The notes under the pieces: model-generated
The model's input: the letters and a program-made list of their open reading frames with translations, nothing else
Database searches by the model: none
What the model was told of the DNA's origin: nothing
Source: Sphingomonas sp.
GTDB taxonomy: Bacteria; Pseudomonadota; Alphaproteobacteria; Sphingomonadales; Sphingomonadaceae
Assembly (NCBI GenBank): GCA_031369985.1
Contig: JANMPU010000034.1
Coordinates: forward strand, 12,857 to 76,856
Length of the DNA stretch: 64,000 nucleotides
Direction of reading: 5' to 3'
Part shown: piece by piece, positions 16,352 to 18,149 of the stretch
Numbering within the stretch: the first letter of the stretch is position 1
Layout of the letters: every line of letters starts with the position of its first letter
Made by a program: the position numbers and the translations under genes

Positions 16352-17023
16352 TTAGCCTTTGCGGGCGATTGTTGACGATGCTTCGCCGATGGACTTGAGG
16401 GTATTGGCCAAGGCCTGTGAAACGATGCTCAATTCCTGACCAAGAGCCTGCATCTCGCCAGTCACCTTACCATATTTGGACTGACCTTCGGCGTTGAAAC
16501 TACCATCCTTTTTCAGTGCGCCATTCTCACCCAAATTGCCCAATTCGACGCCTTTTTTAGCCATCAAATTCATCTTATCGTCCATAATCTTGCCGAGAGC
16601 ACGAGCGATCTTCATCAGCACGCTGCCACCTTCATCGCCCTCAGCGTCCTCGGTAGAGCTACCCGCACGACGCATTTGCCCTTCAAGGATAGCCCGCATA
16701 CCGTCTCGAGCGGTGTCAACGGCGCGTGAGGCCTGACCCATCTGCGCTGGTGAGAAATTGAACGCACGTCCAAGCTGGTCAAGAGCAGCACGGCCCGTGT
16801 CGGGGCCACCAGCGCTGCCTGTTGCAGCCGAAAACGCTTCTTGCGCCATGCTAATAACTGCTGGAGGAAGTCCGAGTTTTTGACCAATCTGCATAATCAC
16901 CTCTTTGGCGACCGCAGTGAGAACCATCTTTGCAGCGATTGAAGCCCAACCAGCTGGTCCCATCGCGAGCTGCATCAGCGTGGCCGGGTTAATGAGTGAT
17001 TTGAACAATCCACCGATATTCAT
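16352..17023 (-). CDS. N-terminally extended SctF-family (needle/filament- or harpin-like) protein A; candidate T3SS substrate
   Basis: 223 aa, no Cys, Gly/Ala-rich centre, AAGGAG RBS. The C-terminal ~100 aa align by eye with the cluster's SctF (IARALGKIMDDKMNLM vs FAGAWGKALDKQADVI; TLKSIGEASSTIARKG vs SLDSVSKALETMARKG). The hydrophobic N domain is shared with paralogue B. Confidence 0.6.
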   Translation of the reverse strand: MNIGGLFKSLINPATLMQLAMGPAGWASIAAKMVLTAVAKEVIMQIGQKLGLPPAVISMAQEAFSAATGSAGGPDTGRAALDQLGRAFNFSPAQMGQASRAVDTARDGMRAILEGQMRRAGSSTEDAEGDEGGSVLMKIARALGKIMDDKMNLMAKKGVELGNLGENGALKKDGSFNAEGQSKYGKVTGEMQALGQELSIVSQALANTLKSIGEASSTIARKG

Positions 17024-17043
17024 GACTAATCTCCTTCGTCGAA

Positions 17044-17118
17044 AAACTGTCGGGGTGGCCGGAAGGACCGCCCTACATTCATTGTTCTGGCAGAAGGAAT
17101 TGAGTCGCGAACTCCACG
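17044..17118 (-). promoter_or_regulatory. Conserved promoter/leader block upstream of gene A
   Basis: In gene orientation: CGTGGAGTTCGCGACTCAA, then TTCTGcCAGAA, then AGGGCGGTCCTTCCGGCCACCCCGACAGTTT, ending 20 nt before the ATG. The same three blocks occur upstream of gene B. Confidence 0.5.
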
Positions 17119-17150
17119 AATCGTTTAGTTTACCTAAACGATTCGTTTAG
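17118..17150. promoter_or_regulatory. Palindromic operator-like element built from three TCGTTTAG half-sites
   Basis: GAATCGTTTAG-TTTAC-CTAAACGATTC is an 11-bp inverted repeat. It overlaps the 17-bp perfect palindrome CTAAACGATTCGTTTAG (17134-17150). A related GAATCGTTTA occurs at 17297 on the gene B side. Confidence 0.4.
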
Positions 17151-17159
17151 TTTTGTGCC

Positions 17160-17275
17160 GATCCGCGCTCAAATCGTCTTGCTGAACTCGTTTCAGCATC
17201 CATCGCGGCACGCAACCGACGGTGTTCGTTGGAAAATGGACCCTGAAACAAGTTCAGGGCGACGCTCCTAGTGTG
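17160..17275. repeat. REP/MITE-like intergenic element with two hairpins
   Basis: Hairpins TGCTGAA-ctcgt-TTCAGCA (17180-17198) and CCCTGAA-acaag-TTCAGGG (17241-17259). A further CCCTGAA-tcttcg-TTCAGGG hairpin lies at 46984-47003. Confidence 0.4.
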
Positions 17276-17321
17276 ACAGCAACGTCCTAAACTATTGAAT
17301 CGTTTATTCAAACCAAAGGCT

Positions 17322-17395
17322 CGTGGAGTTCGCGACTCAAGACCTTCTGTCAGAAAGATGTCCGAGGGCGGTCCTTCCGGCCACCCCGACAGTTT
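17322..17395 (+). promoter_or_regulatory. Conserved promoter/leader block upstream of gene B
   Basis: CGTGGAGTTCGCGACTCAA (17322-17340), TTCTGtCAGAA (17345-17355), and AGGGCGGTCCTTCCGGCCACCCCGACAGTTT (17365-17395), which ends 19 nt before the ATG. Confidence 0.5.
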
Positions 17396-17414
17396 CAATA
17401 GGAAGGAATGGATC

Positions 17415-18149
17415 ATGAGCATCTTCAGTTCAATCGGACGCGCACTTCTTAATCCAGCAACGCTCATGCAGCTTGCAATGGGTCCCGCAGGCTGGGCTTC
17501 CATTATCGGTAAAGCGCTCATCAGCTCAATCGCACAACAGGTCATTCAGCAGATTGGTCAAAGACTGGGCCTGCCGCCAGCAATGATCGCAATGGCTCAG
17601 CAGGCGTTTGGTCAGGCGTCCGGATTGTCGGCAGTCGGTAACCGTAGTGTTGCAGAAACGGTCGGCGGGTTTGCCGCGGAAGCTGGTGCTTCGGCTGTCG
17701 AACAGGGTGCGATGACGCGACAGGCAACTTCAATCGCCGACGTTATCACTCAGATGGGTGTTGATGGAATCCGCAATCAGGCAGAGCGTGCGCGCGCTGA
17801 AAGAGAACGCCAAACTGGCGTTTCCGAAGGTGGGGGTGATGCGGCCGCAACACTTGCGAGCCTCAACATTTCAGGTGGCTTCTTGGTGGCATTTGCGGCT
17901 GCGATGGGCCAAGTGATGGATAAGAAGCAAGACGACATGATGAAGGTAGCGAAGGCAATCAACGATGAGGGCAATACCAAAATTGACCCGAAAAACGTCG
18001 ACGCGCTGACCGCTCGCAATTCCAAAATTCAGACGTTGAGCAGCGTTCTGAGTGGCCTTGGGCAAGAGATGAGTTCGTTGTCGAATGCCGTTAACAACGC
18101 GCTGAAGTCAGCTGGCGAAGCTCAGTCGACGCTTGCACGCAAAAGCTGA
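17415..18149 (+). CDS. N-terminally extended SctF-family (needle/filament- or harpin-like) protein B; candidate T3SS substrate
   Basis: Start refined to ATG 17415 (GGAAGGA RBS), giving 244 aa. N domain LLNPATLMQLAMGPAGWASI...IGQRLGLPPAMIAMAQQAF is shared with A. C-terminal hairpin FAAAMGQVMDKKQDDMMKVAKAI, then IDPKNV, then SNAVNNALKSAGEAQSTLARKS. Confidence 0.6.
   Translation: MSIFSSIGRALLNPATLMQLAMGPAGWASIIGKALISSIAQQVIQQIGQRLGLPPAMIAMAQQAFGQASGLSAVGNRSVAETVGGFAAEAGASAVEQGAMTRQATSIADVITQMGVDGIRNQAERARAERERQTGVSEGGGDAAATLASLNISGGFLVAFAAAMGQVMDKKQDDMMKVAKAINDEGNTKIDPKNVDALTARNSKIQTLSSVLSGLGQEMSSLSNAVNNALKSAGEAQSTLARKS

Follow-up and report, generated by a model that had tools for sequence, protein, structure and literature searches.

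Knowledge of injectisomes is built on a few pathogen systems, and these models use unrelated proteins for needle, tip, filament and translocon. The SctF needle subunits (PrgI, MxiH, YscF/PscF and BsaL) are helix-loop-helix proteins of ~75 residues that end at the C terminus with a basic residue, and the subunit N terminus lies at the needle surface. The EspA/SseB proteins, encoded in the locus of enterocyte effacement of enteropathogenic Escherichia coli and in Salmonella pathogenicity island 2, are ~190-240 amino acids (aa) long, have conserved ends and a variable centre, are encoded apart from the needle gene and are presumed to stand atop a short needle. The Hrp/Rhc pilus proteins (HrpA, HrpY, HrpE, NopA, NopB), found in environmental and plant-associated bacteria, are variable appendage subunits of type III secretion systems (T3SSs) with a C-terminal polymerisation region. 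In the flagellum, paralogous axial proteins (rod, hook, junction, filament) build successive tube segments, with shared terminal helices and inserted outer domains. Here we describe two paralogous genes, A and B, which adjoin a T3SS cluster in a 64,000-nucleotide stretch (the window) of a Sphingomonas sp. contig (JANMPU010000034.1, positions 12,857 to 76,856), and whose products end in a domain related to F, the protein in the needle slot of that cluster. Sphingomonas is a common plant- and water-associated genus.

A and B are transcribed divergently, each followed by a DUF6683 gene. The gene for F occupies the sctD-sctF-sctI-sctJ slot; those for A and B are elsewhere, past sctT and a luxR-type gene. 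The C-terminal part of A and B is predicted to form, like an SctF needle, a short helix-loop-helix with a basic residue at its end; the full proteins differ from SctF in being 2.5-3 times longer, in their gene position outside the sctD-sctI slot, in lacking the PxxP loop and in having long variable loops. With EspA/SseB, A and B have in common the length, the conserved ends with a variable centre, the separation from the needle gene and the presumed position; EspA, however, is not detectably a needle homologue, whereas A and B clearly are, and EspA genes are followed by translocator genes where those of A and B are followed by one for an exported DUF6683 protein. The rhizobial Y4YQ_C domain carried by SctD (Pfam) is a likeness to the Hrp/Rhc systems, but their pilins are of 6-17 kDa, lack a conserved hydrophobic N-terminal domain and share no Pfam match with A and B. 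The flagellar arrangement is the one proposed below for F, A/B and SctI, although there is no sequence relationship. By analogy, the closest functional counterparts of A and B would be the EspA/SseB filaments and the Hrp/Rhc pili, and the closest evolutionary logic that of the flagellar axial family.

Relationship of A and B to the needle-slot protein F

The results show that the C-terminal ~75-95 residues of A and B are clearly homologous, at the level of sequence, to F. A and B match each other across their full length (BLASTP expectation value, E, 4e-38; 37% identity), and F matches B directly (E 6e-6); pairwise, F and A give no match. When the A/B profile (113 sequences) was aligned with the F profile (45 sequences) by hhalign, the probability was 97.1% (E 7e-11), F residues 25-99 pairing with the last 83 columns of the A/B profile, and a more diverse profile of ~100-aa F-type proteins raised it to 99.6% (E 1.1e-24). 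A six-frame scan of the window with a hidden Markov model (HMM) of the needle-like domain found this domain in F, A and B only, A being recovered at E 3e-27. The F-type HMM also touched SctI (E 0.004), which echoes the known kinship of needle and inner rod.

The relation detected by these profiles had been proposed by a first-pass annotation of the window, which aligned the ends of A and B by eye along all ~100 residues of F. The homology holds; the shared part, on the other hand, is limited to 75-95 residues and leaves out the first ~25 of F. The peptides on which that alignment was based are all present, namely the first helices, the turns GGDKPSD (F) and IDPKNV (B) and the N-terminal domain NPATLMQLAMGPAGWASI...GLPPA, as are the quoted C termini of F, A and B, which end in ARKG or ARKS.

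AlphaFold2 predicts a confident helix-loop-helix at the C terminus of B (H156-187 and H195-243, predicted local distance difference test 86-96) and a helix-loop-helix for F (H29-56 and H62-99). HMM scores separate the A/B-type and F-type proteins into two sister types (75-85 versus 14-41 bits, and the reverse).

A weak resemblance is also seen between the first ~20 residues of A and B (iNPatLmQLAmGPAGW) and the F-type N terminus (i....L..lAa.P..g). With an hhalign probability of 14.6% and a pairwise E of 0.002 it is no more than suggestive. If it is real, the N-terminal "extension" would be an insertion between the N-terminal segment of the needle and its first helix, and would then resemble the flagellar insert, which lies between N- and C-terminal helices; otherwise the two differ, the A/B insert being N-terminal to the hairpin.

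The first-pass annotation also placed F, A and B in the SctF family. For this, F offers its gene slot, its size, its hairpin and a loop, GGDKPSD, which contains a single Pro and resembles the KPSD of PrgI (the PrgI sequence used for comparison was checked and is identical to PDB 2lpz). A fold search with the F model returned BsaL (2g0u) as the top match, every E being above 0.7, and needle chains (PrgI, MxiH, BsaL) made up, by our own count, ~18 of the best 50 among 350,000. A and B join their predicted hairpin to a length of 223-244 aa, loops of 10-45 residues and no PxxP.

At the sequence level the assignment to SctF falls short. The Pfam family T3SS_needle_F (PF09392) matches none of A, B and F; at E up to 0.1 it matches 17 of the 113 A/B relatives (best 2.2e-5), three of which, scanned singly, scored 15.9-17.2 bits against a gathering cut-off of 29.4 bits, and sub-threshold matches occur in 5 of 29 F-type relatives (best E 3.9e-6). 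No member of either type attains the curated threshold. Profile-profile comparison with canonical needles (28 genuine PF09392 proteins) gave unstable scores: the top alignment, with both helices and the loop in register over 65 columns, had a probability of 57.9% (E 1e-4), and other runs gave 33.5%, 7.6%, 4.4% and 3.7%. BLASTP of F against PrgI found nothing, sequence searches of the PDB with F, B and the family profiles found no needle or other meaningful match, and none of A, B, F and the DUF6683 proteins matched NCBIfam. We therefore treat F as the likely needle of this system, on the basis of position, size, predicted hairpin and fold search more than of sequence, and its membership of PF09392 as unproven.

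A/B-type proteins, their partner and their promoter

The T3SS of the window is divergent by sequence, its SctV being 37-43% identical to the SctV of Hrp2, Ysc and SPI-1 systems. In a scan of one genome per species we found 49 A/B loci, all in Sphingomonadales (Sphingomonas, Sphingorhabdus, Novosphingobium, Qipengyuania, Erythrobacter and Pacificimonas), and at ~42 of these the distance from the A/B gene to T3SS genes is 10 kb or less, so that A/B genes accompany this T3SS type rather than being common in its absence. The usual order is sctQ-R-S-T, a luxR-type gene, the A/B gene and then 1-7 DUF6683 genes (seven in locus L046); alternatively, sctD-F-I-J-L-N is followed, after ~5.5 kb of other genes, by the A/B gene and DUF6683. 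In most related loci the LuxR/GerE-type gene stands immediately 5' of the A/B gene, and directly 3' of it all 49 have at least one DUF6683 gene. A divergent two-copy arrangement like that of the window occurs in just two loci (L002 and L031), so one copy per genome is the norm. B matched no plasmid record.

The association extends to distant metagenome contigs, where an A/B-type gene occupies the same slot beside a T3SS. The gene that follows it carries a Pfam DUF6683 match in L052 and L053, and in L050 it encodes a 235-aa protein which has no recorded Pfam match, yet aligns with DUF6683 proteins. A further contig, L055, has an F-type gene of 106 aa in the sctD-sctI slot and, further along, a gene for another protein of needle size (107 aa), with a DUF6683 gene directly behind it. 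By HMM the slot protein is F-type (89.3 versus 31.0 bits) and the 107-aa protein A/B-type (78.6 versus 38.2 bits), which indicates that this T3SS class has two old needle-like lineages and that the N-terminal extension is optional. What is new here is that A/B-type proteins are a fixed component of a divergent T3SS family. As read from these sequences, its conserved core is a second needle paralogue together with DUF6683, and the N-terminal extension varies from none to ~280 residues.

At 90% clustering A and B have 115 relatives of 190-280 aa, nearly all of them metagenome proteins. Column conservation is 0.72-0.93 over residues 1-70 and 0.08-0.5 in the hypervariable centre, and the hairpin is again conserved; the N-terminal domain, which the first-pass annotation saw as shared by A and B, is the most conserved part of these proteins, ahead of the hairpin. 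In the terminal ARK the R and K are invariant. F is more conserved than A/B, with a mean column identity of 67% versus 30%. With a domain-only HMM, 883 representatives were retrieved after clustering at 50%, and 459 of them had E <= 1e-10; ~100-aa and ~200-290-aa proteins are mixed in this set, and among the best 150 of the 883 the needle-like domain reaches the C terminus or comes within a few residues of it. Many of the long distant representatives differ in their N-terminal part, where one reads ...ALGIATGGTSIIA...QQVGQQLGLPQ..., and about half of these retain a GQxLGLP-type motif. A and B are free of Cys, which the first-pass annotation had noted for their centre, and contain 11-13% Gly and 15-17% Ala; 107 of 110 relatives likewise lack Cys.

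The N-terminal domains of A and B are uncharged and moderately hydrophobic, with a maximum 19-residue Kyte-Doolittle value of 1.1-1.3, and the overall maximum of B (1.59) falls at the start of its needle-like domain. We considered whether the N-terminal domain is a transmembrane helix and rejected this, its hydropathy being under the usual threshold; only 1 of 110 close relatives attains 1.6 in the first 80 aa. A general secretory (Sec) signal was also rejected as unlikely: 107 of 110 relatives have no acidic residue in the first 30 aa, and the wider family is mostly without a basic n-region. A third candidate, a relationship between the A/B centre and DUF6683 prompted by a weak match in one relative, was also dismissed (hhalign probability 0.2%).

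The DUF6683 proteins themselves have Sec signal peptides; in sphingomonads they also carry a linker rich in Gly and, at the C terminus, a hydrophobic anchor whose short basic tail ends GRRG. In the copy 3' of A, a signal-like segment stands at the N terminus and the hydropathy of the C-terminal anchor reaches 1.84 at residue 314. With a signal peptide and an anchor of this kind, the DUF6683 domain should be periplasmic. A DUF6683 profile found no relative in the PDB, and literature searches, confined to one searchable library, returned nothing relevant on the A/B family, DUF6683 or extended SctF paralogues. The two copies of the window are 69% identical over 216 aa. The last 255 nucleotides (nt) of their genes (15274-15528 and 18887-19141) are 90% complementary, whereas the remainder of the duplicated block is far more diverged, as the 37% protein identity of A and B illustrates. 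This contrast suggests either gene conversion or selective pressure on the stretch that encodes linker and anchor.

The A/B genes also have their own promoter, with a family-specific operator-like element. A pair of palindromes, CTAAACGAWTCGTTTAG, lies 5' of A, with a degenerate copy near 17293-17335, and the promoter regions of A and B are mirrored within the inverted duplication. Of 55 upstream regions (loci L001-L049), 29 have the CTAAACGAWTCGTTTAG pair, at a distance of 100-180 nt from the A/B gene, and of the 31 occurrences of the 9-mer AAACGAATC in 892 kb of loci, 29 are upstream of A/B genes. With up to 2 mismatches allowed, this operator-like motif was absent from the other T3SS promoters in the window. 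The tandem palindrome probably serves a dimeric regulator as operator, and the neighbouring LuxR/GerE protein may be that regulator.

Possible roles of A and B

The scheme that we favour, tentatively and at somewhat short of even confidence, is that A and B are secreted axial subunits on the F needle, forming a distal filament, a sheath or a multi-copy tip. As a second, anciently diverged lineage of needle (axial) protein they would be substrates of the adjacent T3SS, would join the distal end of the F needle through the shared C-terminal hairpin and the terminal ...ARK(G/S), and would extend the needle as a filament or sheath, or at least cap it as a multi-copy tip. In such a structure the inner tube would consist of the hairpins, and the variable centre and the conserved, uncharged N-terminal domain would face outward. 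The scheme starts from the homology, the predicted hairpin, the place of the domain at the extreme C terminus, the conserved ends and variable middle, the T3SS linkage and the separate promoter; every step past homology (that the proteins are secreted, that they polymerise on F and that the extension faces outward) is one that we infer.

The outward position is based on solved needles, whose lumen is bordered by the C-terminal helix, in PrgI as far as its final residue, R80 (PMC6625726). Taken together with the surface position of the subunit N terminus mentioned at the outset, this makes a needle lattice of N-terminally extended hairpins sterically feasible. Conserved ends with a variable middle are the pattern of flagellin and EspA, and the stronger conservation of F than of A/B is expected for a buried versus an exposed subunit. 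We also count in favour of the scheme that the domain stands at the C terminus and has the invariant R and K, as in needle proteins; the tight synteny with the T3SS, distant contigs included; the improbable Sec signal; and the separate promoter, of the kind usual for late structural substrates, with its tandem palindrome. The full cluster of a close relative (L054) adds to this, as no tip, translocator or filament gene is recognisable elsewhere in it.

Several observations weigh against this scheme. What is known here of secretion and assembly comes from sequence and models. The N-terminal 150 residues of B are helical in the AlphaFold2 model, though at low confidence, and a fold search with the full B model returned generic helical hairpins only, all with E above 0.7. 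At the sequence level, F and A/B are weakly linked to canonical SctF. A paralogue of 107 aa without the extension in one lineage means that the role assigned to the extension is not the core function, and a purely extracellular filament does not account for the invariable, Sec-exported and apparently periplasmic DUF6683 partner.

One alternative is a periplasmic or basal role, in which A/B would build or prime a proximal axial segment, or cap assembly, with DUF6683 acting on A/B in the periplasm. In every lineage examined, including where the extension is missing, the paralogue is paired with DUF6683, which is consistent with such a role, as are the signal peptides and the sphingomonad C-terminal anchors that put the DUF6683 domain in the periplasm. 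However, an inner rod gene, sctI, is already present, the hypervariable centre and long variable loops suit an exposed rather than a buried position, and the gene pairing may mean regulation or protection instead; we regard such a role as improbable. It is unlikely, though less so, that A/B serve as a few-copy tip or translocon adaptor, standing in for the classical separate tip and translocator proteins: the hairpin would dock a small oligomer on the needle end and the N-terminal domain would contact the target membrane or insert into it. No tip, translocator or gatekeeper family was recognisable in the cluster of the window or in the full L054 cluster, conservation peaks in the N-terminal 70 aa, which are moderately hydrophobic and lack acidic residues, and the wider family has segments rich in Gly, Ala, Ser and Thr (such as ALGIATGGTSIIA), all of which would suit an adaptor. 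Yet the N-terminal hydropathy stays under the transmembrane threshold in all but 1 of 110 relatives, the 107-aa version has no such domain, and the translocator (SctE/SctB) and tip (SctA) families of Pfam do not match A or B.

A hairpin that could pair with F, expressed from its own regulated promoter, might also belong to a non-structural needle mimic, that is a secreted or cytoplasmic regulator which binds F or the export gate and controls polymerisation, needle length or substrate switching. We consider this quite improbable, since the strict conservation of the extreme C terminus and the constant place of the domain at the protein end point to incorporation in a helical lattice, and known needle chaperones are small, unrelated proteins. 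The EspA-like or harpin-like character suggested by the first-pass annotation found no counterpart in Pfam: EspA (PF03433) matched neither A nor B and was absent from the 25 most frequent families of the 113 relatives at E up to 0.1, and no harpin family matched A, B or their relatives. A harpin-like or effector protein released to the medium or the host apoplast, with the hairpin merely as an export or oligomerisation module, would be Cys-free, Gly/Ala-rich and linked to a T3SS as A/B are. We nevertheless give this very little credence, because conservation is strongest in the N-terminal and needle-like domains and not in any effector-like centre, and because effectors differ between genomes whereas A/B is a universal, normally single-copy core component of the cluster.

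Whichever role applies, a widespread T3SS class, spanning Sphingomonadales and more distant metagenome lineages, with ~880 clusters at 50% identity bearing the domain, has a second needle-derived protein as a fixed part. If A and B do form the distal structure, a duplicated needle gene can give rise to an extension of the needle, in the manner of the flagellar axial family, and the scheme would suggest, in testable form, what takes the place of tip and translocator proteins in environmental T3SSs. It would likewise provide a first starting point for the function of DUF6683 and for the role of the T3SS in Sphingomonas. A wider view, and a rather unlikely one, is that this T3SS class has no separate tip and translocon at all, and that the linked DUF6683 proteins, with up to seven tandem copies, are periplasmic assembly or protection partners of a minimal, previously unseen outer end of the injectisome. 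Cultivable carriers of the cluster include S. trueperi DSM 7225, S. azotifigens NBRC 15497 and S. pituitosa NBRC 102491.

Further features of the locus

The features of the window are collected in Table 1. The start of B was taken as the ATG at 17415, within a longer listed open reading frame (ORF) at 17295-18149. The sctC gene of the T3SS cluster encodes the secretin and the SLT gene a lytic transglycosylase (Pfam).

Table 1 Coordinates of the T3SS cluster, the A/B locus and their sequence features in the window.
Feature	Position	Strand	Basis or remark
Non-flagellar T3SS core cluster	370..14831	sctN, L, J, I, F, D, C, V and SLT minus; sctU, Q, R, S, T plus	Pfam
sctI (inner rod), 137 aa	3482..3895	minus	weak Pfam T3SS_basalb_I, E 0.0024
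F, 100-aa needle-slot protein between sctD and sctI, presumed SctF	3898..4200	minus	
LuxR/GerE-type small regulator gene	14828..15277	plus	Pfam GerE, E 3e-10
Inverted segmental duplication [DUF6683 <- A <-][-> B -> DUF6683]	15274..19141		inverted repeats; centre near 17220
DUF6683 gene 3' of A, 339 aa	15274..16293	minus	PF20388, E 1e-9
Gene A, 223-aa A/B-type extended needle paralogue	16352..17023	minus	ORF; B paralogue
Needle-like helix-loop-helix domain of A (C-terminal, ~residues 133-223)	16355..16627	minus	alignments; hhalign to F-type profiles
Conserved uncharged N-terminal domain of A (residues 1-70), NPATLMQLAMGPAGWAS...GQKLGLPPA	16814..17023	minus	family conservation
Two overlapping-register 17-bp palindromes CTAAACGAWTCGTTTAG, 22 bp apart	17112..17150		candidate operator, ~100-127 nt 5' of A
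Gene B, 244-aa A/B-type extended needle paralogue	17415..18149	plus	ORF; paralogy with A; 115 relatives; AlphaFold2
Conserved N-terminal domain of B (residues 1-70)	17415..17624	plus	family conservation
Needle-like helix-loop-helix domain of B (C-terminal, residues 150-244)	17862..18146	plus	hhalign; AlphaFold2
DUF6683 gene 3' of B, 312 aa	18203..19141	plus	PF20388, E 4.5e-13
Weakly similar N termini: B residues 8-29; F residues 1-22	17436-17501 (B); 4135-4200 (F)		

The left edge of the window cuts the cluster just past sctN. In related loci the region past sctN holds candidate effectors (L054 14812-20099; L012 5941-9767), which include pentapeptide-repeat, ankyrin-like and lipase/phospholipase-like proteins and a DUF1521 protein with a small neighbour gene; DUF1521 we take to be the domain of the rhizobial effector NopE. 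Within the cluster of the window, an ORF of 106 aa between sctU and sctQ (11816-12136, plus strand) resembles, by position and length, a gene of 102-106 aa with a FliO Pfam match in L050 and L054, and a 175-aa ORF (10417-10944, minus strand) that overlaps the start of sctU is probably spurious. Behind the module of A/B-type and DUF6683 genes, L050 (12174-16187) encodes a polymorphic-toxin-like protein of 1191 aa (DUF4781, Colicin-DNase/WHH) and has an immunity gene of the SUKH type.

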